Source: Candidatus Woesearchaeota archaeon
GTDB lineage: Archaea; Nanobdellota; Nanobdellia; Woesearchaeales; ARS49
Direction: 5' to 3'
Assembly: GCA_030750765.1 (NCBI GenBank)
Contig: JASMHM010000005.1
Span: forward strand, 14,256 to 78,255
DNA: 64,000 nucleotides
The translations under genes and the position numbers were made by a program. Below are positions 28,437 to 60,833 of this stretch, one piece after another; positions within the stretch are counted from its first letter, which is position 1, and each line of letters begins with the position of its first letter. Below the pieces are notes generated by a model. The model had not been told where the DNA came from. It saw only the letters and a program-made list of their open reading frames with translations, and did no database searches.

Positions 28437-28514
28437 TTTTTTCTGCGTGTTGAGTCTTTCCCGGAAAGTTTCCGGACTTAAAACGAAAGGTATATAAATG
28501 GTAATACCTTTGTA

Positions 28515-32051: not shown

Positions 32052-32059
32052 TTTATATA
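32052..32059 (+). promoter_or_regulatory. TATA box (tttatata) 26 nt upstream of the GTG start of giant protein 1; leaderless arrangement
   Basis: The same box and spacing occur before tRNA-Ile, tRNA-Asn and the giant-3 operon. Confidence 0.5.
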
Positions 32060-32084: not shown

Positions 32085-35000
32085 GTGAAAAAAAGGGGGA
32101 ACCGTTATCACATCTTGATACCGGTAGGTTTAATAGTCGTATTTCTAGCTAGCGCTCTCGCTGTCATAGCCGAGTACCAAGTACCTGCAGGACAGTGCGG
32201 TGTTGAAAGAATGCTTGTCGGTACACGCGTCACTCCGGGTACGGTCATAATCTTGTTCGGAGACGGTACAAGAACGTGCCAATACCCTCGAGACATTCCT
32301 CACCCCTCAGACATCGTTGACACTAACTGCGCGTACGTTGTCAAGGCGGGCGGCAAGAAGTTCTCATGTTACCAAGAGGTGCGAGAGCGCGTACGAACCG
32401 GTTTCCCTATCCACAACGCGTACTGTGGAGACTGTCCATTGTGTTCAGAACCTAGATACGAATGTGAGGGCATGAACGGTGAGATAACGTGCTGTAATGA
32501 GGCAGCACCGTACTGCCTCAATAGTGCAGAGCCAAACTCGCCACCGTCTTGTGCACGATGTCCGATGTACCCAGATCCGACGGGTAGCGACCCCATGTCT
32601 GGTCCGCAGGAAAAACCGGGTATAGCTTGCGGAAATTCAGGATGTTGTGATCCGTACAACGAACGATGCTACCAAGGAACATGCGCTCCTAAGTGCATGC
32701 AAGGAGATCCTATGGCCGGAATGCCTGCAGAGATAGAGTGTGGGGCTAACTGCTGCGAGAGTGACCAAACTTGCAGGAACGGAAAGTGCATCAACCCTAA
32801 CTGGTGTGAAAAACGAGAACAGACCAAATGTGGTGAAACCTGCTGCGAGTGGGATGAGGAATGTAACAACGGAGAATGTGAAGAATTGGGTTGTGCTAGC
32901 GGTCGAAAACACCGTTCTAACTCGTATCACTGTTTTGACGCCCACCGTCAAGGGATCTACAATCCTTTCGCGCTTGACGAAGCGTGTGACGCTAAAAGGA
33001 ATCCTAAACGGTTCTTCATGTCTGGAAGAGCAGATTACTACAATAGGGTCTGCTGCACCGAGAGAAGTTCCATGTGCTGCCAGGAAGGGTATACTGAAAG
33101 CATATGTGCAGAGCTCGGATGGATGGATCCTTCAGATCCTTTCCTAAAACTTCCCAAGGCTAACGATCCTCCACACCTTCAATGGTCTCCTATTATGGGT
33201 GGATCGCAATACGCATCGTGCGCCGGACATTTGGTGAACTTGATGGACCTTCGCGCTAGGTGCTTTCCGGTCTACACAGGTTCATGGGTAGCAATTATGC
33301 ACTCTCAAGGAGAGCGAAGAATGACTACTGATACCCAAGGCAATAAGCGTTCTGCGGTAAGCTGCTGTGTGAAGTATCCCGAACCAGAGGAGGTACCCTT
33401 TGAGTGCCCGCCTGATCCCTTCACCTTCCTGCCAACAGCCAAATGCGGCGAGTTCAATTGCTGCATGGAGGGTGAGAAGTGTGAGAACGGCGAATGTGTC
33501 GTTCCGTTTGAGTGTCCTATTGATCCGATGACGAATGTGAAGATGGCTAAGTGTGGTGAGGATAATTGTTGCATGGCCGGTGACACCTGCGAGAACGGCC
33601 AGTGTGTTCCGCCTGGTGATCGTGATCGTGATGGTGCTCCTCCCGGTCCGCCTAGGTGTCCTCCTGATCCTTACACGGGTAAGCAGCTCGCATGTGGTGG
33701 TACAGGACCTTGTGAAGGCAAGGATCTACTCGGTAGATCACAACACGTTTGTGGGGCAGGTTGCTGTGCTTCTGGACAAAAGTGTTTGGAAGAAGGTTGC
33801 ACCAAGACAAAACAAGAAGTCACCACTACGATAGCTCTAGGCAGTTCCTACACTACGGGTGATTTCCGTGTGTTGTTCGAGAGTGTGGATGCTCAGTACG
33901 CAAATTTCAGAGTGTTCAAACAAGATGAGGATAAGGGCCGTCTCCGTGTGGCTAAGACGCCCCCAGCCGAAGGAAGCAAAGCGGGCGTAGGCATCAGCCT
34001 ACTCAAATTGGAGGAGGGCTCTGCTCCTCAATCCACTCCCAGCACGGTAAGCAATGCTGTGACGGGGTGTCAAACATTAAGCAAACAAAATACGGTATAC
34101 ACGCTGACCCAAGATGTGGTGGCCGATAAAGGTTGCTTCGTGGCCAAGGGACAAGGTTCAACGTTGGATTGTGGGGGGCATACCATACGTGGCAGTGGTC
34201 AGGGTGCAGGCGTGAGAATCGAGACGTTTATGGGTGGATTCACCGTCAAAAACTGCAAAATCACAGAATTCCAGACGGGTATCGAGGTGGTCACGCACAC
34301 GCGAGGTGTGGTTTTGGAAAACAACGAACTTTTCAAAAACACCGAAAATGGGGTAAATTCTGGAGTCCACAACTGGGATGTGCAGTTAACGAACAACAAC
34401 GCGTATGACAACGGCAAGAACGGTTTCCAATTCAACGACAACTCTTACCGCGCCCTGGTAACCAACAACCGAGCAACCAACAATGGTGGGGGAGGTTTTG
34501 TATGGTTACACAACTCATACGATCCGGTATTCAAGAACAATCAAGCTTCAGGACACCCGTGTGACTATCGCTTCGCAAGTACTGTGGCCAAGTTTGGCCG
34601 CACGGTTATCTTCCAAAACAATATTGGGAAAACTTGTGGACTTCCGGGAGCGCCCACTCCTACTCCACTACCATCCAAGACGGTATGCACCGCTGAACAA
34701 CTGAAAATAACCCATGTGGCTATAGGCGTGCGGGATTATTACAGAAAAAGCCCTATTGAGGGTGTCACAGTATACGTCAGCCACAAAGGTAAGGGCTACA
34801 CCGTGACGTCTAAGCGTAACGGTGATGCGGTGGTTGATCTTGGCATTCCCACGTGGTGTGGTATGGTGCAAGGCACACTCAAGTACCTAGTGCAAATCCA
34901 GCACTACGGGTACGCAAATTTCCGACAAACGTACAATCGAGCAGGCGTGTCTGCATTACTGAGACTAGATGATGACAGAATGTTTATGACTGGGGCAAGC

Positions 35001-36437
35001 GTGACAGGTATGAGCATACTAGACACGCCACTTGAAATGAGCGTGCGCTTCACCGACAAGGCAACCGGAGCGCCCCTTCCTGGCATTCCTGTGAGCGTCA
35101 TTGAGGTCGTGCACAACGGTCCTCCTATTAAGACAACGTACCACTCAACTCGTTCGGACGGAAGCGTTAAAGTCTCACAAACGCCATCATCTCTGGGCAC
35201 ATCATTCTGGTTCGTGGCAAAGTCTGCTGACCACACAATCCATCCCCTGCCAATCTACATTACCGGACCCCTCACTACATCACAAGCGCTCTCCAAACCT
35301 GAGAATCCTTCGTTGTGGGATTCGGGTAAGGCCGTCTTCACCACCTACACCAAAAAGGACGATAAGGTTGTCCGTCTCCGGGCTAAGCTCACGTATTCCC
35401 TTGCTGACGGCCAAAAAGTCCAGGCCACGGCCAACAGCCAAGGAGAAACTACCTTCACGTACAAATGGGATACCAAAGGCGAGATCATCAACGGAAAGAA
35501 ACTTACCTCCAACAGAATTCGAACAGCTGCAGCCATAGGTAGGATAAAAATAGAGATGTCTGGTTACAAGACTAGAGATCTGGGTTCGGGTATGTGGTTG
35601 GGCAAGATAAGCAAGATCAACCTGAACATGGAGCCAACGTCAGGGTCAGGAGGTACCGTTAGTCCTCCACCGCCTCCCGTGCCTCCGCCTACACCTCCTC
35701 CGGTGCCACCGCCTAGTCCTACACCTCCTCCCACACCTCCTCCCGTACCGTCACCTACTCCGCCTCCCACACCTCCACAGCCGCCAGGACCGGATGCCAA
35801 GAAATTGCTAGCCACGATCAAGATAACCACAGAAACGGAAGAGTGCATACAAACAACCTGCGCAGAGCTCTGTCCTGCAAACCACATCAGCTGCGGAAAT
35901 AGCTGCTGCGGACCAGAACAAAAATGCAGTGATGGCGCATGTGTCGTCAAGGAGGATTGCGGTGGCGTACTCTGTCCTTCTGGAGAGGTTTGCATCAACG
36001 ATATTTGCGCGTTGGCGTGCGACGAGAAAGAAACCCGGTGTGGTAATGCCTGCTGCAACCGAGGACAAGAATGCTTCCAAGGAAGCTGTCTCAACAAGCC
36101 CTGTCCGACACTCAAGGGCGACAGACCAACAACTGCCTGTGGGGGAACATGCTGTGGTCCTAATGAGTATTGTGAATCCGAAAGATGCCAGCCAATGTGT
36201 GATGGACAAGGAGCAGGCACTCCCGTGCCGCCAACCCCTCCTATCCCTCCTACGCCTCCCGTTCCACCCACGCCGCTTACAGGCCAAGAGCATTGTGGAG
36301 TTATAGAAGGACCTATACCTGGACCTAACGGAAACGAGGTCTGTCAAGGGAAGAACTTACAATGTAAAGAAATTGAATATGTCCTTCTTGGTGATACTTC
36401 CTCACCCTCCTTAGCAAGTTGTGACAAAACCTTTTAG
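32085..36437 (+). CDS. giant secreted cysteine-rich surface protein 1 (1450 aa): signal/TM, Cys-rich modules, parallel beta-helix, Ig-like domain, Pro-rich linker, Cys-rich modules
   Basis: GTG start. N-terminal hydrophobic helix ILIPVGLIVVFLASALAVIA. Recurrent C-G-x-x-C-C-x(5-7)-C-x-x-G-x-C modules. PbH1-like repeats (CGGHTIRGSGQGAGVRIE...NNELFKNTENGVNSG...NNNAYDNGKNGFQFNDNS...NNRATNNGGGGF) at ~34050-34640. Domain SFWFVAKSADHTIHPLP...TTYTKKDDKVVRL...KWDTKGEIINGKKLTS...GMWLGK is shared with giant 2. PPPPVPPPTPPP linker at ~35660-35790. No C-terminal anchor. Ends at a single TAG that is in frame with giant 2. Confidence 0.7.
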   Translation: MKKRGNRYHILIPVGLIVVFLASALAVIAEYQVPAGQCGVERMLVGTRVTPGTVIILFGDGTRTCQYPRDIPHPSDIVDTNCAYVVKAGGKKFSCYQEVRERVRTGFPIHNAYCGDCPLCSEPRYECEGMNGEITCCNEAAPYCLNSAEPNSPPSCARCPMYPDPTGSDPMSGPQEKPGIACGNSGCCDPYNERCYQGTCAPKCMQGDPMAGMPAEIECGANCCESDQTCRNGKCINPNWCEKREQTKCGETCCEWDEECNNGECEELGCASGRKHRSNSYHCFDAHRQGIYNPFALDEACDAKRNPKRFFMSGRADYYNRVCCTERSSMCCQEGYTESICAELGWMDPSDPFLKLPKANDPPHLQWSPIMGGSQYASCAGHLVNLMDLRARCFPVYTGSWVAIMHSQGERRMTTDTQGNKRSAVSCCVKYPEPEEVPFECPPDPFTFLPTAKCGEFNCCMEGEKCENGECVVPFECPIDPMTNVKMAKCGEDNCCMAGDTCENGQCVPPGDRDRDGAPPGPPRCPPDPYTGKQLACGGTGPCEGKDLLGRSQHVCGAGCCASGQKCLEEGCTKTKQEVTTTIALGSSYTTGDFRVLFESVDAQYANFRVFKQDEDKGRLRVAKTPPAEGSKAGVGISLLKLEEGSAPQSTPSTVSNAVTGCQTLSKQNTVYTLTQDVVADKGCFVAKGQGSTLDCGGHTIRGSGQGAGVRIETFMGGFTVKNCKITEFQTGIEVVTHTRGVVLENNELFKNTENGVNSGVHNWDVQLTNNNAYDNGKNGFQFNDNSYRALVTNNRATNNGGGGFVWLHNSYDPVFKNNQASGHPCDYRFASTVAKFGRTVIFQNNIGKTCGLPGAPTPTPLPSKTVCTAEQLKITHVAIGVRDYYRKSPIEGVTVYVSHKGKGYTVTSKRNGDAVVDLGIPTWCGMVQGTLKYLVQIQHYGYANFRQTYNRAGVSALLRLDDDRMFMTGASVTGMSILDTPLEMSVRFTDKATGAPLPGIPVSVIEVVHNGPPIKTTYHSTRSDGSVKVSQTPSSLGTSFWFVAKSADHTIHPLPIYITGPLTTSQALSKPENPSLWDSGKAVFTTYTKKDDKVVRLRAKLTYSLADGQKVQATANSQGETTFTYKWDTKGEIINGKKLTSNRIRTAAAIGRIKIEMSGYKTRDLGSGMWLGKISKINLNMEPTSGSGGTVSPPPPPVPPPTPPPVPPPSPTPPPTPPPVPSPTPPPTPPQPPGPDAKKLLATIKITTETEECIQTTCAELCPANHISCGNSCCGPEQKCSDGACVVKEDCGGVLCPSGEVCINDICALACDEKETRCGNACCNRGQECFQGSCLNKPCPTLKGDRPTTACGGTCCGPNEYCESERCQPMCDGQGAGTPVPPTPPIPPTPPVPPTPLTGQEHCGVIEGPIPGPNGNEVCQGKNLQCKEIEYVLLGDTSSPSLASCDKTF

Positions 36438-36512
36438 GCGCACACCGGGCAGGGTAAGTTTAGAGCGGCATGCTGCACTACGCGAGATCTATCTTGTAAG
36501 AATGTTAGAGGT

Positions 36513-39500
36513 ATGAGTGGAAAATCTGGAAACGAGGTATGTGCTATACGTGGAGAAACGTGTGAAGATGTTTTCCTTCATTCCGGAGGTAAGGCGGTTC
36601 CGACAATGGAGTACATTCCGCCCGTGGGATGTGAATCGGTAGTTAGTTCGAATTCACAATGGGGATTGATGAATACTGTTAGCGGATTCAATGCAAATGT
36701 TGTGTGTTGCGACACTCCTGCTCCCCCTGTATCCCCTTCCGGAAAGACTTGCACTGCTGCAGAGCTAGCCGAAACAAAAGTGTATATTGCACCACAGGAC
36801 CGGGGAGCAACTACCCTGCTTAAGCGGCGAGTCCCCGTAAAGGTTATTCATAATGGAAAAGAGTTCAACGAACGGTCCAGTCATAGGGTGCCAGCAATAA
36901 TCGATCTTGGCATTCCTACGCGGTGTGGCGAGATACAAGGTACGCTCAATTATGAAGTAGTCATTGACGACCCGTTTTTCAAGCCTTACCGACGGTCTTT
37001 TAGGAAGGTTTCTACAAACGTCTACTTGGATCAATCCTCTTCACCCACTGGAGCATTGATCACAGGGATGGGCTATCTGGATACGCCGGTAGAAATGAAA
37101 GTGAGCTTTAGCGACAAAAACACGGGCGCGCCTATAGCGGGAGTTCCTGTAGAAGTGTATGAAGTTGAAGCTTCATTCCAGCCCCTACCTATTCGTAAGG
37201 CTCGATACACCACCAACGCAGATGGGCTCGTCACCGCATCCGAGACACGTGCCCAGTTTAGAAGCAGTTTCTGGTTCGTCGCCAAAGACTCCCGCCACAC
37301 AATCAATCCTTTACTCGTCTCTCCTGTGGGGAACAAACCTACCTCCAAAGCACAAAGTCTGGAAAGACCAAAGGACGAACGTTTTGACACCGGCGTTATG
37401 ACAGTTACTACCTATACCAAGGAAAATGGAAAGGTGATAAGACTTCCCGCAACCGTAACCTACTACCTTCCTAATGGTGAGTCCTCGGTTATCACGGCGA
37501 ACGCAAATGGGGTGGCCAAACTCATCTACAAATGGGACGCCATGAACGAAATCATTAACGGAAAGAAACTCACCTCGACGCGATTTCCTCGAGTGATCCC
37601 TGGCGGAAAGGTTCGCATAGAAATGCCTGGCTACAAAACCGAAGAAATTGGTGCCGGAATGTGGTTAGGCAAGAATAGCAAAGTCACTATGAGACTTGAA
37701 AAAGAGACCGTTTCCAAACCCGCGCCCCCTGTTCGCCCTCCAACACCTCCGCCAACTCCACCTCCTACTCCGCCTCCTACGCCGGTTCCAACTCCCACGC
37801 CTGCGCCACAGCCTAGTCCTGGGCTTCCGCCTCCCCGTCTGCCAGAGTTTGTTCCTGGATCAAGCACGTGCATAGTTCCTGCAGGTAACGCAGTGCCTCA
37901 ATCAGAATGTGGGCTGGATGAAAACTTCGTTCTAGACGACTTTGAAGGTTGGGAGCGGGTAACAGAAGGCTCAGGAACAATAGGGCACAAAAGCGGCAAG
38001 CTTCACCTAAAAATGGGCGGGGGCTCGAACTGGAAGGCAGTAGGCCTCAAGAAAAAGCTTCCGCATCCCATGCATGATTTTGCTGTCTCGGTAAGCATCC
38101 AAGGAGATTTCAAAGGAGGGGGTAATCAGCGTGGACAAATAGTACTGAGAGACGCTTGCGGCAAAGAATTCACACAACAAATAGGAAGAGACATGGGTAG
38201 TAGTACCTGGAAAGGGGAGATTTGCAATCCAAGATGTGACGAGAGCGAGACTAGATATCGTGGAGAGCCGATTCTTTATGTTTTCGTCAGAAAAGGCCCA
38301 GTCTTCACCATAACCGAAAACGGAAACCGAATTTTTTCCGGCAAGCTCAACATAGGTAGGTTAGACAGCGTTCAACTAGCCGCACTCACAAACGGGTACC
38401 CTCCTGCCTTCACCGTGGACTTTGATTACATTAACGTCGTTGGTACATGCACGACCGAGCCAGGTTGTGATTGTGATAACTTTGGGACCACGCCCGACAA
38501 CGAGCCTCCACCTGAACCGCCTGAGCCTCCTGCACCCGAACCTCCTCCTGAGATGGATACTGAAGAGTGCGCCACTTTCGCTGATGGAACAGAAACAATA
38601 GCCTGCGGCAACACTTGTTGTACACCTCAGGAAGATTGTGTTGGTGGCCAGTGCATCGTCAACTGCGCAGATCCTGGTGATTTTGATGATCCTGATGATT
38701 CAATTCCTGATGATTGCCCTGTTCTCCCTGGTCAAAGAGTCACAACGCCCTGCGGCAACACGTGCTGTGGGCCTAACCATGCGTGTGTGGACGGTGCTTG
38801 TGTGAATGCTTGTCCAGGACCTCCGCCTCCGCCTGAGAAACCTCAATGTGGAGGGGGCTGCCCCAATCGTAATAGAGGATGGGGTGGGGGAGAAATCTCA
38901 CCAACCACTCTTGCGCATAGTAGAGTAGGGATAAGCGTTGCTACTTCCCAGAACAAGATCGCTGTAGGGGCCGTGAGTAACCGAACGAGCGCTCCCTTCC
39001 CTACCCAAGTGTACACTTACGAACGTACCAACCCGCTTCTCACACCTACCAATGTGTATCCAACCCCTCCTGAGTACTTCATCCAGAAGGGAGGGCCCAT
39101 ATTTGGTCCGGCATATTACAAGGGAAGTGGGCAGCCAGCTAAGGCTGGTGGGCAAAACTTGTACTTGAGATTGCGCCAAGATGCCTTCCGTCAAATGCAG
39201 ACCTTAGACCCTCCTGGAGAGAGTTATGAACGCTTTGGACAAGCGGTTGCCATGCATGGCGACACGTTAGTGGTGGGTGCTCCTAATAGTGACGCTGCCG
39301 GACTCCCAGGAGCCGCGTACGTGTACCGGTACACTTCTGAAGGATGGGAGTTCTCGAAAAAACTAGAACCCGATGACTCACCTCAGAGCGCGCTCTTTGG
39401 AAGCTCGCTTTCCTTCGACGGAGACACACTACTTGTTGGAGCGGTTGATAAACTCTTCGACCCGCTCAACCTGCACTGCAAGCCAGGATTCAATTTCGGA

Positions 39501-42500
39501 AATGTCTATGTGTATGATGCGAGCATGGAGTTAGTCCAAAAGTTGGTCAGTCCTCAACCACAATTTGGTGACTTCTTTGGCAGTGCCATGGACGTTGATG
39601 GAGAGCTCATTGTCATAGGCGCTCATGGCCAGGATACTGCCGAGATTGACCAAGGGGCCGTGTTCTTGTACAGGAAAGTGGGAGGAAAATGGGGTCTACA
39701 GAAAAAAATAGTGAACGAGCTTCTCACGAAGGGTGCGCAGTTTGGGGCTGCCTTAGATTTGCATGAAGGCACGCTCGTGATTGGCGCACCTAGACACGCA
39801 CAGGCATATGACGGAGAGTGGAAGAGAGACATGGGGCACCTTTCGGAGTATAATATCGGACCTGCAAGCGTCACACTAGTGAGATCTGTAGAGCCGTCTC
39901 GCGGGTGCACTTTTCCCTTACTCTTTGGCTGGTCTATAGCTACCAACGGAACGCAAACGTTTGTTGGAGCAAAGGCCGCAAATAATGAGCACGGACTCGT
40001 GTTTATTGCAAACCACCCAGAAAGCGGAGATATCCAGCTCTCAAAAGAGTTATTGGGTCGGGATGCGGATTATGGACCCTTTACCGATCCTAGAGCAATA
40101 AAGCTCCATCCTAAACTTATCCTGGAACCATCTGTACACTTTGGTCACGAGCTGAGCTGGGATGAAGTGCTTGTGGTGGGTGCCCCACTTTCTGGCAAGA
40201 ATGATGAGGGTGCTGCCTTGGTCTTTGCCAACGAGCTTGACAGGCACTGGGTGGATGTCATTCCTAAATCCGATGCGGCCGCTCTCACTTCCTTTGCAGA
40301 TATTAATGAGGACCTTCTTGACTTAAACTTAGACGCTATTAGCCTTGATTTAGATCTGTCCAACTCCATAACCGGCGGCGCGGTCGTCACGCCAAGAAAC
40401 ATACTTGCTCTAACCGGACTAGCTTCCATCACAGGCGCGCAAGTATTTGATCCTATGTTTCCCATTTTCAAACCTGGTACTTGTAAAAGAGAGCTAGATA
40501 GTGATCTTGAGTGTATAGCTGAGTGCGAGTTTTCGTGTTCTGTTCCTCCAGGAACTATGTGCGACTTTACGATGTGTGGTGTGGAGTGTGACTCGCGTCC
40601 TGATCCTATCTCTTGCCACGAAAGTTGTGTTAACGCCGAAGTTGCCTGTCACGAAAGAGAAGAGGAAGCGAATATTCAAAATCGTGAGGTCTGCATGAAT
40701 GATTGCTTAATCTGCTGCGGCCCATCTCTTCCTTTCGAAGACTTTTCCTTTGTCCCTGAAAATCCTTCTATCCCTGAAGGACCTGGTCCGACCTCTGTGC
40801 CTAGTGACACATGTCACTTCCCGAAGTCGCCAGAGCCCTTATGCGTGGACGACTGCATGGGAGATTGCCATTCTTGGAGGACAAGGGTCTCTATGCATAA
40901 TCTCGAAGCAATCCGCGATGAATGTTTCGATGAATGCGTCGCCGCGAGTATGGACTTTGTGTGCTCTGATGAAGGCACGCAAGCGTGTGATGACATTGTC
41001 CGAGATGCAGAAAAAAAGATTCTCAAACTCGAACAAAATGTTGAAAGATTCTGCGACGGAGAAGCCGCGAAGTGCGAAAACAACTGTTGTGGTTGTGATG
41101 CGAGTCAGGTGAGCTGTGGCCAAACGTGTTGTGATGCAGGAACGACATGTGTAGCAGGAACCTGTGCTCCTCCTGTAGCCATCATCCCTGTGGTAAACAA
41201 GCCTATCATGCAGCAGCTGTGCAACGCCCGTTTCCAAGGAGACCAACAATTCTATTGCGGTGAGGACTCGACAAGCATAGACGTCGCAAGGGTACAAAGT
41301 GCTATTGATAATGGAGACACGGGCTTGGTCAACCAGTTAGTCATGTTCCAGTGTTGCGAACCACCACAAATATGCAAGAACGCAGGATCTTTCTCAGCGA
41401 CCTGTGGCAATCCTCCTGAATGCCAACCAGGCGACACACAATGCGCAGGCATAGAAAAGGAGACCTGCAATGCTGGATCGTGGCAATCTCTAGGTATCAT
41501 TCTGGGAGAATGTGGCGTGGATTGTGAGCCAGGTCAAACTCGATGCTCTCCAGGAAACGAATTCGAAGAGTGCGACAGCGAAGGAAAATGGCAAAATCAA
41601 GGATTACAACAGGGTAAGTGTGGCGTTGCATGCCTTCTAGGAGAAAAAACCTGCGACGATAGAGGGGTATTGCACGTGTGTGCTGACACCAACGTTTTCC
41701 AGGCCTCTGGATTGGTAATGGGAGAGTGTGGCGTAGACTGTGAGCCCACAAGCACACGATGTGATGGGACCAACGTCCTTCGGTGTGATAGCACAGGCAA
41801 GGAATTCAGCGAAGGCGAAGTTCCAGGCCAGTGTGGAGTGCCTCTGCCTGAGATAGAGATTACACCCGTTCCAGTGGCTGAAGAAGGAGAACAGGTTGTT
41901 GTTCCTGGTGAAGTGCCCGCTGGAGCCCAAGACAGACCATCCGAATCAGGATGCACCCAAGACGAGTGCCGAGAACAAGAATTCTGGCAGTGCAGAGATG
42001 GAGAACTCGTACAACGAGGATTCATCCGAGATCAGTGTGGGGTAGAATGTTCACCCGGCCAAGAAGCCTGCCAAGGATCAGAACTACACAAATGTAACGA
42101 TCAACGATTATGGGAGAATTTAGGCATTCGCTTCACAGTATGTGGTAGTTTGTGCACGCCTGGCCAAGAAAAATGTGAGGGCACCACTTTCCTCAAATGC
42201 AACAACAACTGGCAGTTTGATAACCTAGGAAGTCAACCGGGCAAGTGCAACGTGCCGGGTCCAGAGGGTGGAGACGGCTCTATCATGAGTGGGGGAACTG
42301 GTTGTGACTGTCCTGCAGACAGACCACTACCTACCCCTGGAAAAACCCCGTGCCCTGCTTTCCCTGATGGCACCACATCCTGGCCGTGTGGAGACATGTG
42401 CTGCGTGGAAGGAGAAAGCTGCATCGAAGGTCAGTGCACGCTGGAATGTCCAAAATACGAACAAGAGATACTCGTATGTGAGAATGGTGCCACAGGTCCA

Positions 42501-45500
42501 GGTGGAAAAGGACCTGGCGACTACTTCCTGAAGGAATGCAACCAATGCCCTGTACTGCCAGGAGGCAGACTGACCATACAATGTGGCAATGATTGCTGTG
42601 GACCTAACGAGCGCTGTATACGTGGAAGCTGTAAGGCTGCCTGCACCTATGCTGGCGGGGGTGTGGCTAACATCCTAAATATCGTGCATTACTCACAAGT
42701 AACCAACTACACCCAAGTCTTCCAAAACGTGATCAACGTCACCCAGGTAACTGAGATCGTCCAGGTAGAAAACATCACCCAGTTCTACAACGTCACCCAA
42801 GGATGTCAAGAGATACCCGTACACGTGCTGGAGATGCCTGGAAGAATACCTGCCCAGGGAGTCACGGTAGAGGCCATCAACTATGATGATTTGGCAGCGA
42901 ACGTTCGCAACGTAGCAGACACTGGAAAGACTGACGAGCTCGGAAGAACCAAACTCTTCCCTTGCGAGAGCAGTCGCTTCATCATCGAAACCCAACCACG
43001 CATCTTCACCAAGAGTTTCGGCTTTGCGAGCACAAACAAGATAAAACAGCTGACTCTATTCGTCACGAGACCTCTCGAAGGAACAACTACTGAGACAAGC
43101 AAGTTAACCGTCCACGTGAGTGCTGACTTCAGAGACGGAGTCAACAGATTCATCCAGCCATTCCCTGGCGTGGAAGTGACGCTCAAGAACAGCAACTTCC
43201 ATGAAGGGGTCAAGCTGACCGAGATAGCCGAAAAGATAACAGATGAAAATGGAAACGTAACCTTCCTCATAGGGGTAGGGCCGGGTTATCTGGAGATTGA
43301 CGGGGAAAAACTATTTACTACCCGTCTTGTCCAAGATCTGGATGAGGATCTGATCATAACGGCCTTGGCAACCAGAGATGTAGGAAAGAATCAGCGAGCA
43401 TCCACAAAGCGCATATCCATCAAGTCTCACGGCACCTTCTTGGAATCTCGCTTTGCTCTCAACACCCCACCAAAAGGGGGCGAGGGAAGAGTGCAAGTTA
43501 CTAAGGAGCTAAAAGATCCTACAGTGGATGAGTTGGTCATCACCATCCAGGGCCCTGACCGAAAAGTGCTTCCAGGAGCAATCATCAAAATATTCAGCGG
43601 TGACGTTCTCGTCACGCAGCGAGTTATGAGCGATAGGCTACCCGTAGAGATTACCCTTCCAGAAGGTGATTACACTGTTGTAGCAGAAGCAGGAGATCAC
43701 AAGAGCGTGTCAAAGAACGCTTCGATCAAGAACCGTTTCGGCAAGCTACGAGGAGAACGAGTACTAATTCGGCTGACGGAGAGTACCATCCCCTCACTCA
43801 CGGCACGTATTATACACCCGCTCCAACCCTCCCCACTAGCCAAGTTCTTCACCTGGCTCTCTGGACCACCCACTGGTGCACTGACTGTGCTCAACTGCGA
43901 CGAGCCAAACCTCCCATGTGGAAGTGGATGTTGCAACTGGCACACCGAAGCGTGCAAAGCAGGATTGTGCGTCCCTAAGGTCGTGCAGGACAATCTAGCT
44001 TGGACAGACACACCACCGCCGCCCATCAAGCCAGACACTGACGAGTGTGTAGAAATCTACACCCACCAAGGTCCTATACCGATGCGAAACGGTGGCATAC
44101 TCATAAAAGCAGGCACGCATGGAAATAAGGCTTGCCAGTACAGAGCAAATCTTCCCTGCAACTGTGTCAGAAAAGGTGAAGGAGAGTGCAACATCAAATG
44201 CGACGCGCACATCGAAAGCACAACTATCACCGGAACATTGCCCAATAATTATCAGGAACGCGCTGGTTGGCGTCAGGAATACGTGGCCAGTTGTGGTTAT
44301 TGTGAGGACAAAACGCAAGTAAGTGGAGATACGCCAATCGATACCTGTCCTACGACCGAAAGCTTTGACAGCGCCCTAAACATGAATCTTGCATCCTGGG
44401 GTAAGGAAAAACCAAAGTATGGATTCCACGTTCGGAGCGAAGAGCAAGTCATTAAGATACAACGCTTTGGTGCTTCCGAGGACGCGAATGTGGTCCTGTA
44501 CCGGACGCTCCAAGAGCCTCTCGCAGACTTCCGACTCAAAGGAAGTGTGTACGCTGTCTTTGATGGAAAAAGAATGACTGCTAGCATCGCAGTCGTGGAC
44601 CAAGCAGGAGCAGAACATGTGGTGGAACTTGGCAACTACGTTAGCTACCACGGAAGAACTCGCCACATAAATGGAGGAAGGCCGGGTGGAGCGTACGCTG
44701 AAAGAACCTGGCAAACCTTTGCCATAGAAAAAAGAGGAAGCAGCATCAAGGTATACTCGTATGTTGACGGCATCGAGACAATTGTCAAGGAATACGGTAG
44801 CAAAATCGGTGCGTTGAGCCGTATTGAACTTCGCACTTGGCAAGAGGGACTGGGCAGCGAGGCATGGTTCAAAGACTTCCATCTTTCAGGTATTTGTGGA
44901 CTGCCAGCAGAGGACGTACTCCCTGACATTGATGTTTGTGGCAGCCAAGGATCATGGGATGTGAACCAAGGACCCCAAAGCAAAGTCCAGGCGCAAGATG
45001 GTCGTATCCGTATTGAAACCGTGGGCGGAGAAGATTCCTCAACGCTCACCCATGAGATCACCAAACCACTCATTGACTTTGACATTAGCTGGAAATCCCA
45101 AGCAGACTTTGGTTCTTCCATCCCACGCCGTGGACGCAAAAGCATGTTAATTATAGAGGACGAGCAAGGTAGGAAATACAGCTATGGCCTCAACCAGTAC
45201 ACGCACATGCACGGTCGAACACCGAACAACAAACAGGCGATGGTGCATATATGCAATCCTTCGGACTGTAAAACCAACTTTAAAGACTATGACGGCAGTG
45301 TGGTACAGTACCGTTTGGTTAAAAAAGGAAGCACGCTAACGCTATACGCGAACGGAGAGTCTGTAAACACGCAAGGTGCACAATTCTTCAAGCTAAAGAA
45401 AATATCTTTCAACGCACACACCTGGGGCGGTTCGCCACCATTCACTACCTGGTTTGATGGCCTTTCCGTCAAGGGACTGTGTGAAAAACCACCAGAACCA

Positions 45501-47882
45501 CCGGATATTGATTTCTGTGGCAATCGCGGTGGAGCGAATAACGGCTGGGTTACGCTTGATAATGAAAAAATTGCACTTATCAAAGACGAAGGGACTATCC
45601 GCATTGACACTAACTCTGGAGACGGTAAGGATACGTGGCTTACTCGAGAGCTAGAAAACCCACTCGCTGACTTTGCTGTTTCCGCACGCATTCGCATGGA
45701 TCTTGGAGCACGATGGACTTACGATAAAAAACGAGTTGCTCTCAGAGCGTACGACGATGTAGGAAAAATGGTGGCTCTGGGACCAGGTCAGGGACCTAGA
45801 AGACACGGACGGTCAAGTAATCCAGGACCCTATCTGCTCATACGATGCACACACCAACGTTGTTACAATCAACAAGGTGCATTCACACCTGAGTACGTAG
45901 AATATGTCATCGGACGAAAGGACGGTCAAACCTTTGCCCTTGTAAACGGTGAGCCCCAAAACCCTCAGACTCCCTTGGCCAATCTAAAGAAGGTAGGTGT
46001 CTACACTGGTGGTTCGAGCCACAACCCGTACACGTCCTGGATCGAAGACCTCCAAGTGTGTGGCCTATGCGGTGACCAAGGCAAGCCATGCCCTTGCTTT
46101 GAGGGTCAGACGGACTGCGAGCCCACCATCCTTCCCACATGTGAAGTCGGAGAGACAAAATGCAACGGTCCAATCATGGAGGCGTGTGAAGAAGGTTCAT
46201 GGGTGGCAAAGGGAGTCCAAGAAGGCACATGTGGTGCTGTCTGCACTCCAGGAGAGTCGCTCTGTCAAGGAACCTTGACTGCGGTCTGTACCGACCAAGG
46301 TACTCTAGCGCCCGCGGGACTGGTTAAGGGGGAGTGTGGAGCTCTCTGCGCCCTTGGCGAGGAGTTCTGCGACGGCACAGAATACTCCGTCTGTAACGAC
46401 CAAGGAACAGCAGATGTTCGCGGCGAAGTCGAGGGCAAGTGTGGCGTACTCCAATGCCCAAGCATAGACGGAAGAGAGCCTCTGACCGCATGCGGAGAGA
46501 CCTGCTGTAGCGATACCCAAAACTGTATTGATGATACTTGCATCCCACAATGTGAAGGCCCAATCCGCAGTTTCTTCAATAGGCTGACAGGAAACACCGT
46601 TCTCCTCACCGGTCTGGTTGCGGCAGAGTTGGGTTGTCCCTTGTTGCCTGATGGAACTTCTACCTCTGCTTGCGGTACAACGTGCTGCGTGCCTGGGGAG
46701 GTATGCACCGACGGAGAATGTGAGGCTGACTGTCCAAAGGTACAAGAAAGTGTTGACTGTCCGATCTTCTTCAACGGTCTGAAGACCACCGAGTGCGGCA
46801 ACACCTGCTGTACGCCGAGGGAGACCTGTGTGGAGGGCGTATGTACGATTAATTGTCCAGGAAGTTGTGGAGGCACTACCTGTAAGGCTCCTTCCACGTG
46901 CTTGGACAACGTGTGTGTTGAAACATGCGGTAATGCCCTCTGTGGTGCTGGTGAGCTTTGCACAGACGATGTGTGCTCGCCAGGTTGCGATGGAAAATCG
47001 TGTTATCCGGGAGAGGCATGCATTGAAGAGGAGTGCGTACCTACTTGTGGCAATAAGATCTGTGAGGGAGGAGAAACCTGTGTTCTTGATTCTTGCGTCT
47101 CGGTATGTGGAGATACGGTGTGTGGTGAAGGACAAATGTGTACGGATGGCCAGTGCACGCCAGCTTGCGGTAGAAAACTCTGTCTTGGCAGAGAGATCTG
47201 CCTCGATCAAGAATGTGTGCTGCCTTGCGGTGTGGAAGTGTGTAGCCAGGATGAGGTGTGCGTTCTTGATGAATGTAAGCCAGGCGTACCTCCTGAACCG
47301 AAGACCAACATCACCACGCTATTCGTAACTAGAATGGTCAATGTCACTAAGGAGATCTTCATCACCCGATTGGTGAACGTTACCATTAGGGAACCTCTCA
47401 TTGTGGAGAAGGAGCGCATCGTGGAAAGAGAGCGAATAGTTGAGGTACCCCGAACGGTGATCAAGCGTGTGGTGCTAGAGCGACCGATCACGGTTACTAA
47501 ACAGGTTCTCAAGGAAGTCATCATAGAGAAACCCGTCACTGAAGATACGCCCATATTGATTGAGGCACCAACACCAAAAACTCCGCCAGTGATCATAGAG
47601 CCTCCAAAACCAAAGGTCGTGAAGACGCCGAGGGTCACTAAGAAACGTAGCTGGTGGTGGCTATGGTTCTTGTTGCTACTGCCCTTGTTGGCCCTGGGCT
47701 ACCTGAAGAAAAGGCATGATGATCTCATGCCTTTGGTGGACTACATCACGCAGTGCAAGCGCATTGGTTATCCTGATAGCCAAATACGCCAGTACGTCAT
47801 CTTGGGGGGATATGACCCTAAACTTGTTAACCGAGCCCTCGCCATGGCTGAAAAGGAGATGGAACGTGAAACACACAACTAG
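36513..47882 (+). CDS. giant cysteine-rich surface protein 2 (3789 aa): Ig-like domain, Pro-linker, ConA/LamG-like lectin domains (x4), FG-GAP integrin-like beta-propeller, EGF-like Cys repeats, C-terminal TM anchor and cytoplasmic tail
   Basis: No N-terminal signal peptide. The N-terminus is paralogous to the Ig-like domain of giant 1 (SFWFVAKDSRHTINPLL...TTYTKENGKVIRL...KWDAMNEIINGKKLTS...GMWLGK). Pro-rich linker ~37700-37850. LamG-like jelly rolls at ~37900-38450 and three more at ~44340-46070, each ending ...GLCG. FG-GAP repeats at ~38870-40260 (FGQAVAMHGDTLVVGAPNSDAAGLPGAAYVYRY; FGSSLSFDGDTLLVGA; GAVFLYRK). About 40-aa Cys repeats (CGVDCEPGQTRC...GKCGV) at ~41390-42260 and ~46075-46450. 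20-aa CGxxxCxxGExC repeats at ~46850-47280. NxT-rich segment ~42660-42800. TM SWWWLWFLLLLPLLALGYL at ~47645-47705. Ends in TAG. Confidence 0.7.
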   Translation: MSGKSGNEVCAIRGETCEDVFLHSGGKAVPTMEYIPPVGCESVVSSNSQWGLMNTVSGFNANVVCCDTPAPPVSPSGKTCTAAELAETKVYIAPQDRGATTLLKRRVPVKVIHNGKEFNERSSHRVPAIIDLGIPTRCGEIQGTLNYEVVIDDPFFKPYRRSFRKVSTNVYLDQSSSPTGALITGMGYLDTPVEMKVSFSDKNTGAPIAGVPVEVYEVEASFQPLPIRKARYTTNADGLVTASETRAQFRSSFWFVAKDSRHTINPLLVSPVGNKPTSKAQSLERPKDERFDTGVMTVTTYTKENGKVIRLPATVTYYLPNGESSVITANANGVAKLIYKWDAMNEIINGKKLTSTRFPRVIPGGKVRIEMPGYKTEEIGAGMWLGKNSKVTMRLEKETVSKPAPPVRPPTPPPTPPPTPPPTPVPTPTPAPQPSPGLPPPRLPEFVPGSSTCIVPAGNAVPQSECGLDENFVLDDFEGWERVTEGSGTIGHKSGKLHLKMGGGSNWKAVGLKKKLPHPMHDFAVSVSIQGDFKGGGNQRGQIVLRDACGKEFTQQIGRDMGSSTWKGEICNPRCDESETRYRGEPILYVFVRKGPVFTITENGNRIFSGKLNIGRLDSVQLAALTNGYPPAFTVDFDYINVVGTCTTEPGCDCDNFGTTPDNEPPPEPPEPPAPEPPPEMDTEECATFADGTETIACGNTCCTPQEDCVGGQCIVNCADPGDFDDPDDSIPDDCPVLPGQRVTTPCGNTCCGPNHACVDGACVNACPGPPPPPEKPQCGGGCPNRNRGWGGGEISPTTLAHSRVGISVATSQNKIAVGAVSNRTSAPFPTQVYTYERTNPLLTPTNVYPTPPEYFIQKGGPIFGPAYYKGSGQPAKAGGQNLYLRLRQDAFRQMQTLDPPGESYERFGQAVAMHGDTLVVGAPNSDAAGLPGAAYVYRYTSEGWEFSKKLEPDDSPQSALFGSSLSFDGDTLLVGAVDKLFDPLNLHCKPGFNFGNVYVYDASMELVQKLVSPQPQFGDFFGSAMDVDGELIVIGAHGQDTAEIDQGAVFLYRKVGGKWGLQKKIVNELLTKGAQFGAALDLHEGTLVIGAPRHAQAYDGEWKRDMGHLSEYNIGPASVTLVRSVEPSRGCTFPLLFGWSIATNGTQTFVGAKAANNEHGLVFIANHPESGDIQLSKELLGRDADYGPFTDPRAIKLHPKLILEPSVHFGHELSWDEVLVVGAPLSGKNDEGAALVFANELDRHWVDVIPKSDAAALTSFADINEDLLDLNLDAISLDLDLSNSITGGAVVTPRNILALTGLASITGAQVFDPMFPIFKPGTCKRELDSDLECIAECEFSCSVPPGTMCDFTMCGVECDSRPDPISCHESCVNAEVACHEREEEANIQNREVCMNDCLICCGPSLPFEDFSFVPENPSIPEGPGPTSVPSDTCHFPKSPEPLCVDDCMGDCHSWRTRVSMHNLEAIRDECFDECVAASMDFVCSDEGTQACDDIVRDAEKKILKLEQNVERFCDGEAAKCENNCCGCDASQVSCGQTCCDAGTTCVAGTCAPPVAIIPVVNKPIMQQLCNARFQGDQQFYCGEDSTSIDVARVQSAIDNGDTGLVNQLVMFQCCEPPQICKNAGSFSATCGNPPECQPGDTQCAGIEKETCNAGSWQSLGIILGECGVDCEPGQTRCSPGNEFEECDSEGKWQNQGLQQGKCGVACLLGEKTCDDRGVLHVCADTNVFQASGLVMGECGVDCEPTSTRCDGTNVLRCDSTGKEFSEGEVPGQCGVPLPEIEITPVPVAEEGEQVVVPGEVPAGAQDRPSESGCTQDECREQEFWQCRDGELVQRGFIRDQCGVECSPGQEACQGSELHKCNDQRLWENLGIRFTVCGSLCTPGQEKCEGTTFLKCNNNWQFDNLGSQPGKCNVPGPEGGDGSIMSGGTGCDCPADRPLPTPGKTPCPAFPDGTTSWPCGDMCCVEGESCIEGQCTLECPKYEQEILVCENGATGPGGKGPGDYFLKECNQCPVLPGGRLTIQCGNDCCGPNERCIRGSCKAACTYAGGGVANILNIVHYSQVTNYTQVFQNVINVTQVTEIVQVENITQFYNVTQGCQEIPVHVLEMPGRIPAQGVTVEAINYDDLAANVRNVADTGKTDELGRTKLFPCESSRFIIETQPRIFTKSFGFASTNKIKQLTLFVTRPLEGTTTETSKLTVHVSADFRDGVNRFIQPFPGVEVTLKNSNFHEGVKLTEIAEKITDENGNVTFLIGVGPGYLEIDGEKLFTTRLVQDLDEDLIITALATRDVGKNQRASTKRISIKSHGTFLESRFALNTPPKGGEGRVQVTKELKDPTVDELVITIQGPDRKVLPGAIIKIFSGDVLVTQRVMSDRLPVEITLPEGDYTVVAEAGDHKSVSKNASIKNRFGKLRGERVLIRLTESTIPSLTARIIHPLQPSPLAKFFTWLSGPPTGALTVLNCDEPNLPCGSGCCNWHTEACKAGLCVPKVVQDNLAWTDTPPPPIKPDTDECVEIYTHQGPIPMRNGGILIKAGTHGNKACQYRANLPCNCVRKGEGECNIKCDAHIESTTITGTLPNNYQERAGWRQEYVASCGYCEDKTQVSGDTPIDTCPTTESFDSALNMNLASWGKEKPKYGFHVRSEEQVIKIQRFGASEDANVVLYRTLQEPLADFRLKGSVYAVFDGKRMTASIAVVDQAGAEHVVELGNYVSYHGRTRHINGGRPGGAYAERTWQTFAIEKRGSSIKVYSYVDGIETIVKEYGSKIGALSRIELRTWQEGLGSEAWFKDFHLSGICGLPAEDVLPDIDVCGSQGSWDVNQGPQSKVQAQDGRIRIETVGGEDSSTLTHEITKPLIDFDISWKSQADFGSSIPRRGRKSMLIIEDEQGRKYSYGLNQYTHMHGRTPNNKQAMVHICNPSDCKTNFKDYDGSVVQYRLVKKGSTLTLYANGESVNTQGAQFFKLKKISFNAHTWGGSPPFTTWFDGLSVKGLCEKPPEPPDIDFCGNRGGANNGWVTLDNEKIALIKDEGTIRIDTNSGDGKDTWLTRELENPLADFAVSARIRMDLGARWTYDKKRVALRAYDDVGKMVALGPGQGPRRHGRSSNPGPYLLIRCTHQRCYNQQGAFTPEYVEYVIGRKDGQTFALVNGEPQNPQTPLANLKKVGVYTGGSSHNPYTSWIEDLQVCGLCGDQGKPCPCFEGQTDCEPTILPTCEVGETKCNGPIMEACEEGSWVAKGVQEGTCGAVCTPGESLCQGTLTAVCTDQGTLAPAGLVKGECGALCALGEEFCDGTEYSVCNDQGTADVRGEVEGKCGVLQCPSIDGREPLTACGETCCSDTQNCIDDTCIPQCEGPIRSFFNRLTGNTVLLTGLVAAELGCPLLPDGTSTSACGTTCCVPGEVCTDGECEADCPKVQESVDCPIFFNGLKTTECGNTCCTPRETCVEGVCTINCPGSCGGTTCKAPSTCLDNVCVETCGNALCGAGELCTDDVCSPGCDGKSCYPGEACIEEECVPTCGNKICEGGETCVLDSCVSVCGDTVCGEGQMCTDGQCTPACGRKLCLGREICLDQECVLPCGVEVCSQDEVCVLDECKPGVPPEPKTNITTLFVTRMVNVTKEIFITRLVNVTIREPLIVEKERIVERERIVEVPRTVIKRVVLERPITVTKQVLKEVIIEKPVTEDTPILIEAPTPKTPPVIIEPPKPKVVKTPRVTKKRSWWWLWFLLLLPLLALGYLKKRHDDLMPLVDYITQCKRIGYPDSQIRQYVILGGYDPKLVNRALAMAEKEMERETHN

Positions 47883-48300: not shown

Positions 48301-48550
48301 TTTCGTTTGGTCTCATCAAGCAATGTATCATCTTTGACTTGCACTTCCATTCCTTGAGGAATTCCTTGACCTTCTTTTCCTGTTTTGGCCTTACGAGTAG
48401 AACGGTCTTTGCAAGTTGTACTATGCCGCATTCTTTTATGATGCCTGGTTGGCCTCCTCTTCCTTTGAGAGCATAGAAGAATCTGACTTTATCTTTGTAC
48501 ACCAAGTGTTTGGTGTCATATGTAACAATAATCATAGGGGTGAGCTTCAT
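48278..48550 (-). CDS. small conserved basic protein, paralog A (family of three; function unknown)
   Basis: MKLTPMIIVTYDTKHLVYKDKVRFFYALKGRGGQPGIIKEC...FLKEWKC. The ATG overlaps the stop of paralog B. The DNA is clearly a tandem duplicate of paralog B. Confidence 0.5.
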   Translation of the reverse strand: MKLTPMIIVTYDTKHLVYKDKVRFFYALKGRGGQPGIIKECGIVQLAKTVLLVRPKQEKKVKEFLKEWKCKSKMIHCLMRPNEINASKRS

Positions 48551-48894
48551 TTCTTGCCACCTCCAAACTTCTTTTTCAATTCGCGAAGTCTCTCAGCGTG
48601 GGGGTGTTCTTCCTTTGGCGCCGTTCGTATGGAGTCCTGGCCGCATTCTTCTGGTCGCATCAGGCAACGGAGCATTTTGGAATTGCACTCCCATTCCTTG
48701 AGGAAGGCTTGAACTCTCTTTTCATGTTCTGGTGCCACGAGCAACACGGTTTTGGCAAGCTGTGTGATGTTACATTCTTTGATTATGCCTGGCTGGCCCC
48801 CTCTACCTTTAAGCGCGTAGAAGAATCTGACTTTGTCTTTGTACTCTAAGTGCTTGGTGTCGTAGGTGAAGATGTTCATGGGGGCGCGCTTCAT
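48547..48894 (-). CDS. small conserved basic protein, paralog B, with a C-terminal tail (RLRELKKKFGGGKK) matching the giant-3 C-terminus
   Basis: MKRAPMNIFTYDTKHLEYKDKVRFFYALKGRGGQPGIIKEC...FLKEWEC plus the tail. Its ATG overlaps the giant-3 stop. The 25-bp junction sequence cttcatttcttgccacctccaaact is identical at 48545-48569 and 48889-48913. Confidence 0.5.
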   Translation of the reverse strand: MKRAPMNIFTYDTKHLEYKDKVRFFYALKGRGGQPGIIKECNITQLAKTVLLVAPEHEKRVQAFLKEWECNSKMLRCLMRPEECGQDSIRTAPKEEHPHAERLRELKKKFGGGKK

Positions 48895-51800
48895 TTCTTG
48901 CCACCTCCAAACTTTTTCTTCAAGTCACGTAAGCGCTTGGCGTGCTTGTATTCGTGCTCTTCCTGCTTTGGTTTTTCTTTTGGTTTATGCTTGATCGTTG
49001 GCTTTGGTTTCACCATTCGCTGGTAGTTCGTACCAAAGCTTCCTCGCAGTTTTTCTAGACTCTCGTTGTGGGTTCTCTGTCTCTTCTCAACGGGCGTGGG
49101 TTCTAGCGTGGTGCTTGGTGCGGGACGGACGTAGCTTGTCTTGGTCTTGTAGTTGGTGTCAAAGCTCTTCTTCAGGTTGTCCAGCATGTGGCTCTTGTGC
49201 TCATACGGCTTGCGCACGACCTTTGGTGCGGGCACAATAGGTGTTGGTTCTGGTTTTTTGTACTGTAGCCGCTCCTCAACTCTTCCACGGAATTGTTCCT
49301 TGAGCTTGTCAAAGCCATATCGTGGTTTGTGGACTGGTGCGCGAGGCTTCTTCTGGACAGGGAGGGCATGTGGTTGCGCCTTGGGTGTCTTTTCTAAGTA
49401 TCTTGCATAACTTGTACCGAATTGTTTCTTGAGTTGGTGGAGTGGTGTGGGTACTTTTTCAGTCTCTTTTGGCTTGGTCCAAGCGCTTGGGTGGCGTTTT
49501 CCAAGCATCTCTTGTAGTCGTTTCCCGCTGGTCTTAGGTTGCTGTTGTGGGGTGGGTTGAGGTCTAATGACGAACGGTTTGTACTTGACTTTTGGCATGT
49601 CCCACTTTGGTGGTGGGCTAGGTATCTGGGTTCTGGAGGGTAGTCGTATAGGTTTGAGTTTTGGTAGGCTAACTTTCAGGAAGACATCTTGCAACCTTCT
49701 CAAGGCAGGCACCATTACTGGTTTTCGTCTATGAGGCTTCCAGTCTCGTAATGGGTGCGGCACTTTGATGTGCGGTAGGCGGAGGTGTCTGAAGAATTCA
49801 ACAAGGACAGAGACAACAATGAGTGCGAGCAGAACATAGGCAGGGATGAGGGCTTGGTATAGGTAGTGGTGGAGTCCTATGGTTGCGCCTAGGAGGAGTG
49901 CGATGGCTACTTTTCCTAGGCGGAAGATGCGTGGAAGTGCTTTGCCGTACTTGTGCTTCTTGACCTCTCCCCACAAGATGAGGGCGATCATGGCGATGAG
50001 GAAGCCATAAATAACGATGGGTAGCAAGTTCTTGGCTCTTCTTTCAACGATCAAACAGTCACTTGGGCAGTTTACCTTGTCCTCTCCGTTTCCACACACA
50101 CCGTTTCCACACTTACAGTTGAGTGGGTCTGCTACGGTGTCTTCGTCGATTTCCTGGCCAACAACTGCGTATGTGTAGCCAGGTTGGCAGTTGTTAATGT
50201 TGAGCCGGATGTACTGATTGTATCCTAGTGTAACTTTTCCTTCTACTTGTTGTGCTACTAATCTTGCGATGACTTTTCTTGGTACGGAGTGGTCGATGAG
50301 TTGTCCGTGGTCTAGTTCCATCTCAAAGTAGTCTTCGCACTTGTTCTCCACAGGTTGACCTCCGACATTCTGGGCGCTGCTCACACTCACCACTCCGTCA
50401 TTGGGTTCCTTGAAGAACTCTCCAATTTGGTCACTCTCAACGGTGAAGATTGCGGTTTCGATGGTGAAGGGTCGGTTGCCTGCTAGTACGACGTATTCTT
50501 TGCCAGGCATTCTTGGTAGTTGGACTCCTTGGCTTAGGCTAGACACTACTGTGGGGCTTGCCGCGAGGAAGGGCACGATGTTTTTCTTTGCTCCGATCTT
50601 CTTTTGTACTTTCTTGTAGATGTCGATGGCGGGGCTTCCATCGTTTGGTGTTCCTACGAGGATGAGTTTTCTGATTTTTTCTTCAAACTCTTTGTTGGTC
50701 ATGTCCTTGAGTACTTGCTGAGTGATGAGTCCTCCCATACTGTGAGCGACGATGTCTACAGTGTCGAACTCTCGTAATGTACCTTCGATGAGTAGTCTTG
50801 TTTGTCTGGATATTTCTTTGAATTCTAGAGTGCTTGGGTACGCGATACTGTACACTTGTTGTGGTTGTTTGGTTAGTCTGAATTCTTCTATCATGGGTAG
50901 CCAGGTTGCTGGGCTGCTCATGAATCCGTGGATGAGGATGAGTGCTTGTCTGCTGCCGCCATCATATTCCTTACTCATCGTTACGTCGTCACAGCTGTCG
51001 CACCTGATTCCGTAGAATCCTAGTACGCTTGTGGTGTTTGTTTCAAAGCTTCCTTTGACTGTGGTGCCGTCGTAGTTGGTGACGATGGACTGCATGTCTC
51101 CGTTTTGTTTTCGGAATGCGGGGAATTCGCCTTCGAGGACGTTGTTGGTGCGCGGGTTCTTGACGCTTATGGTTACGGTTTGTGGTTTGCCACTGTTTTG
51201 GATGATTTCGATGGGGTCTACGAGTAGTGCGATGTGTTTGTCTACTTGTGGTAGGCTGAGTGCGTGTGGTTTCATGTTGAATTGGAAGGGTGTGGTGACG
51301 TCTTTGAATTCGATGGTGTATCCTTCTACCTGGACGCGTGGATTTTCAGGGGTGATGGTGGCTTGTTTTGTGAGCACTCTCTTTCTATCAATTTCTAATC
51401 CTTCTTTGGAGTACTCGCTCAACACGAGTTCGGAGTAGCTCACGCCACCGCATTCGAACTCTGTTGGTTTTTCTACGCCGACGAATTCGCAGCCTTCGTT
51501 GTTGCACTTTAGCGTTGTTATGTTTTCGTAGTTCTCAGAGACGCTTAGCGTTAGTACGACGTTGTCTCCGGCGCAGTCCATGGCGAATGGGTCTGCTAGC
51601 ACGCTGAAGCCTGTAGGTACTGGAGGGGTGCTGGCTTTCTTGATTTTTACTTGGCTTCCTGCTTCTCCTTGTGCGCATGCTACTTCTTCTGCTTCGATGT
51701 CTTCTTGGCTGATGAAGAGTTTTCCGATGTTGCTTCGTCTTTGGGAGGTTGCGGTGCTCACGCCTGCTGCTTTTGCTGCCGGTGCTGCTGCTGGCGCGGG

Positions 51801-60419: not shown

Positions 60420-60427
60420 TATATAAA
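60420..60427 (-). promoter_or_regulatory. TATA box (tttatata on the minus strand) for the paralog-C/giant-3/B/A operon
   Basis: Forward tatataaa. The GTG lies 26 nt downstream on the minus strand, the same architecture as giant 1 and the tRNAs. Confidence 0.5.
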
Positions 60428-60764: not shown

Positions 60765-60833
60765 GACGGTGATAGAGATGTTTTGTATTTAAATGATACC
60801 CATCTTAATAAGCGGAACCACGCTTTCACTCTC

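Follow-up and report, generated by a model that had tools for sequence, protein, structure and literature searches.

A single giant surface-protein gene of a marine DPANN (Woesearchaeota) archaeon is interrupted by one in-frame TAG codon in the stretch analyzed here, which covers positions 14,256 to 78,255 of contig JASMHM010000005.1 (64,000 nucleotides (nt); the window hereafter). The listing of open reading frames (ORFs) presents this gene as two plus-strand ORFs in a shared frame: ORF1 (32085..36437; 1,450 aa, GTG start, TAG stop) and ORF2 (36513..47882; 3,789 aa, ATG start, TAG stop). An earlier reading of the letters alone (the sequence-only reading hereafter) had proposed that the two are one frame with a single in-frame TAG, and this was confirmed by translating 32085-47882: among the 5,266 codons, stops occur only at codon 1451 (36435..36437) and at the end. 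The whole gene (32085..47882, plus strand) is thus one frame of 5,265 codons with an internal TAG. Comparison with other assemblies indicates that the interruption is an ordinary recent nonsense mutation or a consensus error, and not a programmed read-through. For annotation, both “giant proteins” are best combined into a single gene entry that is marked as carrying an internal stop; the locus provides no basis for a recoding or two-isoform story.

The bases at 36432-36440 are TTT TAG GCG, and the 25 codons that follow the stop (36438-36512) are stop-free. Since 3,814 open codons come straight after the TAG, while the longest ORF in the other frames of the region does not exceed 301 aa, chance is ruled out as the source of the continued frame. 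The position of the stop within the protein sequence leads to the same gene structure. Six units of a five-cysteine module (C..C..C..CC) were aligned: two from the window (unit 1, 36294..36512; unit 2, 36513..36710; both plus strand), one from contig L008 and three from the alternative cassette of contig L007, both of which belong to other assemblies. Cys17, Cys24, Cys43, Cys60 and Cys61 are invariant in all six. In unit 1, the TAG follows the third Cys and precedes the invariant CC pair, and the 25-codon “spacer” (36438..36512, plus strand), which is coding in other strains, supplies the CC pair of this unit and its TRDxSCKNVRG end. Thus, the stop cuts a coding sequence. The sequence-only reading had described these 25 codons as continuing the Cys pattern of the family, and the alignment bears this out; it had also named a non-coding spacer as a finding that would speak against a single gene, and the coding state of the spacer in other strains leaves the one-gene reading standing.

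The TAG site proved to be open in four independent assemblies (represented by contigs L007, L008, L024/L027 and L032), all from the same near-clonal population. The call in L007 (ENA ERZ27286502) is 2,470 aa long and open to the contig end, and L008 (JGI 3300035203) has 2,370 open codons, counted from the GTG start that it shares with the window. In both, codon 1451 is TCG (Ser), read ...CDKTF-S-A..., with C at base 36436 where the window has A; the surrounding ~200 bases of L007 are the same as in the window save for this single base. The 3,876-aa call of L024/L027 (ENA ERZ27245248) reaches exactly the contig edge, at about window position 36250, and is therefore open through the TAG site. 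Finally, in the 43-kb contig L032 (ENA ERZ27245254), a call of 5,387 aa is located wholly within the contig. Its length equals the sum of 2,370 codons (to L008 position 17821) and 3,017 codons (window 38829 to 47879), exactly that of a full allele of the L008 type, so that L032 carries a complete, uninterrupted gene. The TCG codons of L007 and L008 together with the intact L032 allele imply that the TAG was derived by a C to A change at 36436. As far as the compared contigs go, the TAG is thereby shown to be derived, not conserved and not programmed. Whether related loci contain one gene or two, a comparison that the earlier reading had called for, is answered in favor of one: the gene is unbroken in the other assemblies, including the 5,387-codon allele.

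Shorter gene calls in two contigs, L028 (3,789 aa) and L031 (3,737 aa), were considered as evidence that the TAG is present in other metagenome-assembled genomes (MAGs), and were rejected. Contig L035 is identical to the window and its frame is open, yet its gene is called from an ATG 164 codons inside the contig edge, and the calls of L029 and L030 likewise have internal starts; the behavior of these three contigs marks such starts as a habit of the gene callers. Given L035, the internal-ATG call of 3,737 aa on JASMIJ010000006.1 (MAG GCA_030750235.1), which carries one of two alternative interior segments of the gene described below (cassette A), is also no evidence for the TAG. Database searches around the junction were negative. 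A homolog search with a 361-aa junction-spanning query matched only P0001, a partial fragment of the cassette B type that ends before the junction, and the first 396 aa of ORF2 had no match in the homolog search, so that the database searched appears to lack the giant proteins of this lineage. Neither the junction peptide nor the exact DNA pattern (the variable base being given as N) was found in metagenome_contigs or genome_contigs, and exact-product look-ups for ORF1 (1,450 aa), ORF2 (3,789 aa), the 3,737-aa variant and the V1774L version returned none on record.

These alleles also bear on the arrangement that the window superficially presents, namely, two separate adjacent genes, one for a secreted and one for an anchored protein. 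As the sequence stands, a stop does separate the two ORFs, and an ATG follows 25 codons downstream. However, the TAG is located inside the conserved Cys module, and the ATG that opens ORF2 (36513..36515, plus strand) is an internal Met (VRGMSGK) in the intact alleles, sitting in the short link that joins the two Cys units (...SCKNVRG-M-SGKSGNEVC...). Expression signals for a second gene were not found either: an exact search of the window gave no TTTATATA promoter box near 36513, no Shine-Dalgarno sequence with usable spacing precedes this ATG, no terminator-like site was found downstream of the TAG at 36435-36437, and ORF2 lacks a signal peptide as well as a TATA box. With a complete single 5,387-codon gene in another contig, the two-gene arrangement is refuted by the intact alleles, and we give it practically no weight.

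The start of the giant gene is provided with such a signal. A TTTATATA box at 32052..32059 (plus strand) lies 25 nt upstream of the GTG start at 32085, and it is likely to be the archaeal TATA box of the gene, which would give a leaderless or short-leader mRNA. Exact TTTATATA boxes occur four times in the window (7764-7771, 28491-28498, 32052-32059 and 60420-60427) as compared with 0.64 expected. At least two of them (7764-7771 and 32052-32059) lie 22–25 nt upstream of start codons, and this spacing suggests leaderless transcripts.

The sequence-only reading had also offered a programmed amber read-through, by which a short protein would be secreted and a long one anchored. Pyrrolysine, a suppressor tRNA or leaky termination could bring this about. 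The 3,814 downstream codons are fully intact, the order of the domains is compatible with two isoforms, and the decoding machinery could be encoded outside the 64-kb window. Nevertheless, the evidence at the locus does not support this proposal. What decides the matter is the lack of conservation of the TAG, since two contigs have TCG and a further two have an open frame there. In addition, the 126 nt after the TAG form no stable RNA structure (minimum free energy −25.3 kcal/mol, no better than the mean of −28.5 for shuffled sequences; z = +0.97), and no tRNA-CUA is encoded in the window, whose tRNAs are tRNA-Arg(GCG), tRNA-Ile(GAT) and tRNA-Asn(GTT), with nothing beyond these three found by Rfam. 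Moreover, this is the only pair of long ORFs in the window that is split by a TAG, and eight other ORFs there end with TAG. Read-through is therefore regarded as very improbable. The accompanying statement that a genome-wide reassignment of TAG is unlikely was upheld, in that the 42 longest non-overlapping ORFs of the window end with TAA (17), TGA (15) and TAG (10) and no other gene is split by a TAG. In the pyrrolysine-encoding genes of methanogenic archaea, orthologs retain the TAG, and pylTSBCD is present in the genome. The present gene resembles them in having an in-frame TAG in an archaeal ORF; here, however, the orthologous codon is TCG, and TAG serves as an ordinary stop.

What the A at 36436 represents was approached through the substitutions private to the window, of which there are three in ~52 kb of comparison (36436, 37404 and 63812). 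Within 35976-38716, the bases that differ from both L007 and L008 are only 36436 and 37404; the latter changes CTT (Leu) of these contigs to GTT (Val) on the plus strand of the window. The 24.4 kb upstream, where 2–15 contigs cover the sequence, contain no window-private substitution, and 38891-64000 contains the single one at 63812. The other contigs show 0–3 private differences per 25 kb, so that the three changes in ~52 kb correspond to ordinary microdiversity. No indels were found in the window as compared with more than 15 contigs. The distal part of the gene is also unaltered: 38278-47882 (9.6 kb, extending in ORF2 to its stop) is base-identical in L027, L028 and L031, and 38891-47882 is identical in L024 and L025. 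Given this identity, the change must either have arisen very recently or be an artifact. There are no degenerative changes downstream of the TAG and no further stop in the 3,814 codons, and the absence of a second lesion excludes an old pseudogene. The alternative put forward by the sequence-only reading, a very recent nonsense mutation or a sequencing error, is therefore supported by the TCG codon and the unbroken gene in the other assemblies.

Between these two, we lean, without great firmness, toward a genuine and very recent nonsense allele of the sampled strain, in which codon 1451 changed from TCG to TAG by the C-to-A substitution at 36436. In its favor, the assembly is clean, with no indels, and the rate of private single-nucleotide polymorphisms (SNPs) is like that of other contigs. 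Genes with internal stops in other genomes and MAGs (nonsense alleles, pseudogenes or assembly errors) are alike in that one derived base makes the stop where relatives have a sense codon; the present case differs in the exceptional size of the gene (15.8 kb), which offers mutation a large target, and in that no second lesion is present.

Several observations weigh against this preference. The TAG was found in no second assembly, and the A at 36436 rests on an assembly consensus and may be an error of that consensus. The private changes are all transversions (C>A, C>G and G>T), while 38 of 62 other polymorphisms are transitions; an outcome of three transversions has a chance of ~0.06, which, with so few sites, is a weak hint of an artifact. 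Furthermore, the readable intact alleles carry the alternative segment, cassette B (L007, L008 and, by inference, L032), or are of unknown type (L024), and no other readable contig with cassette A covers the junction. The TAG could thus be linked to the cassette A lineage instead of being private to the window.

If the A at 36436 is an artifact that arose where the assembly had low coverage or mixed strains, the true codon is TCG and the 5,265-codon gene is whole in the organism. The site is located in the most strain-variable part of the locus, where other assemblies break near 36250, 36263, 36423 and 36537. Less than 1 kb separates two of the three private changes, both of them in the giant gene. 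Of the three transversions, two are of the C>A/G>T class, which is typical of oxidative damage, and the lack of downstream decay also accords with an error. Against this, the general quality of the assembly appears high, since it is free of indels and, over 24 kb covered by up to 15 contigs, of further private differences, and the private-SNP rate of the window is not above that of the other contigs. A consensus error is therefore a possibility to be taken seriously, although we regard it as the less likely of the two. Should it be true, the protein is an intact, anchored surface protein of 5,265 residues.

If the nonsense allele is real, translation would end at codon 1451 and yield a 1,450-residue fragment with the signal peptide and without the anchor. 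The distal 3,814 codons would remain untranslated, or at best be translated by re-initiation at the ATG at 36513; the product of such re-initiation would have no signal peptide and would be unable to reach the surface. Lost with the distal part would be the second ~320-aa module, the FG-GAP repeats, most of the Cys-rich domains and the transmembrane (TM) anchor. The TAG allele would then be a null or truncated form of an adhesin-like protein. A further reading is that the TAG allele is real and persists in some members of the population, perhaps in linkage with cassette A, where it would turn the giant protein on and off or switch it between secreted and anchored forms. Its drivers could be selection by viruses or hosts that recognize the protein, or low-level near-cognate read-through, the last of which would give a minor anchored isoform beside the major secreted fragment. 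Such a switch is considered most unlikely.

The overall plan of the protein is that of a single secreted and anchored polypeptide. A signal peptide or signal anchor is encoded at 32085..32189 (plus strand), with KKRGNRYH followed by a hydrophobic stretch (residues 7–35), which, among the two ORFs, is the sole strongly hydrophobic N-terminal segment. The maximum 15-residue Kyte-Doolittle mean at the N-terminus is 2.9 for ORF1 and 1.0 for ORF2, whose start is not hydrophobic. At the other end, a TM-like helix, SWWWLWFLLLLPLLALGYL (47649..47705, plus strand; residues 5189–5207), is followed by a cytoplasmic tail of 58 residues (47706-47879, plus strand) and the TAG stop at 47880-47882. The sequence-only reading had placed the only signal peptide in ORF1 and the C-terminal TM helix and tail in ORF2, and both placements agree with these results. 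It had further stated that ORF2 begins directly with a second copy of a module found in ORF1. The second copy is indeed present, but it begins at residue 80 of ORF2 and not at its start. Copy 1 of this ~320-aa beta-sandwich-like module (34686..35633) and copy 2 (36750..37703), both on the plus strand, share 43% identity (E 3e-81) and are each followed by a Pro-rich linker (35658-35786 and 37737-37820, respectively). Pfam found Beta_helix/NosD, FG-GAP_2 (PF14312, E 4e-37 for the protein; the best-scoring of three matched stretches is at 39216..39326, plus strand) and a weak Transthyretin match, and nothing else, in the giant protein. A sequence search of PDB matched only the Pro-linker, to Internalin K. 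The whole protein is cysteine-rich (311 Cys), and the mini-motif CGxxCCx(5-6)CxxGxC occurs in nine copies before the TAG and nine after it. The large ectodomain is composed of a beta-helix, two ~320-aa beta-sandwich-like modules, FG-GAP repeats and many small Cys knots.

Giant membrane-anchored surface proteins of DPANN archaea are known as the nanohaloarchaeal SPEARE proteins, which are 8,880-9,409 aa long and have a VirB4/TraG-like ATPase domain (PMC10266531). The present protein shares with them the DPANN host, an N-terminal Sec-type signal, a very large Ig-like or adhesion-type ectodomain and a membrane anchor (PMC10266531). It differs in that Pfam found no VirB4/TraG-like ATPase in it, in that its tail comprises 58 residues and in that it is very rich in Cys. 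The comparison is one of general plan; sequence homology was neither tested nor found.

The interior of the gene varies among strains. Cassette A (33573..35003, plus strand; 1,431 bp, 477 codons), which encodes the beta-helix/NosD-like domain, occurs in the window, L018 and L021, and other strains have instead the 727-codon cassette B (2,181 bp; L007 12200-14380), which occurs in L007, L008, L011, L015 and L023. Both cassettes are in frame and are 100% identical within each type, and their left boundary is sharp, at 33572. Further mosaic breakpoints were found in the giant gene at 35004-35975, 36727-37034 and ~38670-38716. In one segment, the window is ~27% different from L007, which is the same as L008 there; ~103 codons are missing from the L008-type allele, and L007 and L033 diverge at ~38.7 kb. 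These breakpoints look like the product of recombination among co-existing strains. Short-read contigs end at them, and the pattern of cassettes and mosaics accounts for the breaking of short-read assemblies inside the giant gene.

The surrounding sequence is nearly invariant. In 9163-33572 and 38278-64000, more than 15 contigs show 99.92-100% identity and zero indels, and the locus is present in TARA, JGI, ENA, NCBI and Logan marine assemblies from different samples. These identities mark the source as a near-clonal, widely distributed marine DPANN population. The occurrence of allelic cassettes in a population that is at least 99.9% identical suggests that the cell-surface interface is under strong diversifying pressure. 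A similar case is halomucin (HmuI) of Haloquadratum walsbyi, a giant secreted protein whose gene has conserved ends around a divergent, indel-rich middle in strains of an otherwise nearly identical global population (PMC3119063). Cassettes A and B and the deletions seen here are the equivalent of this variable interior. The domain content is different, and the present protein is anchored at its C-terminus and not released, so that the likeness is one without shown homology.

The neighboring genes are archaeal and include those for RNA polymerase A′ and an archaeal-type helicase. A third giant ORF (48891-60152, minus strand; 3,753 aa) is convergent with the split gene and has only 38 Cys. It shows weak alpha/beta-hydrolase-type Pfam matches at residues ~3070–3180 and has a Lys-rich C-terminal tail. 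Two internal repeats of 319 nt (53871-54189 and 54663-54981) are 87% identical, and strain SNPs cluster at 58143-58388. Its exact product is on record as MDP7199105.1 (QF486_05830, of a Ca. Woesearchaeota MAG), and the JGI name is “pimeloyl-ACP methyl ester carboxylesterase”. In the region between the convergent giants, two stretches of ~285 nt (48302-48585 and 48646-48929) are 79% identical, and this identity makes the 115-aa and 90-aa ORFs located there paralogs.

A 395-aa ORF (60783-61970, plus strand) matches Pfam P22_CoatProtein exactly at the gathering score (24.0 bits, E 2e-5), and no PHROG match was found for it; the Pfam match is probably not significant. Finally, 63094-63489 (minus strand) encodes a clear signal peptidase II homolog (Peptidase_A8, E 1.7e-24), and its presence in an archaeal genome bears on lipoprotein processing in DPANN.

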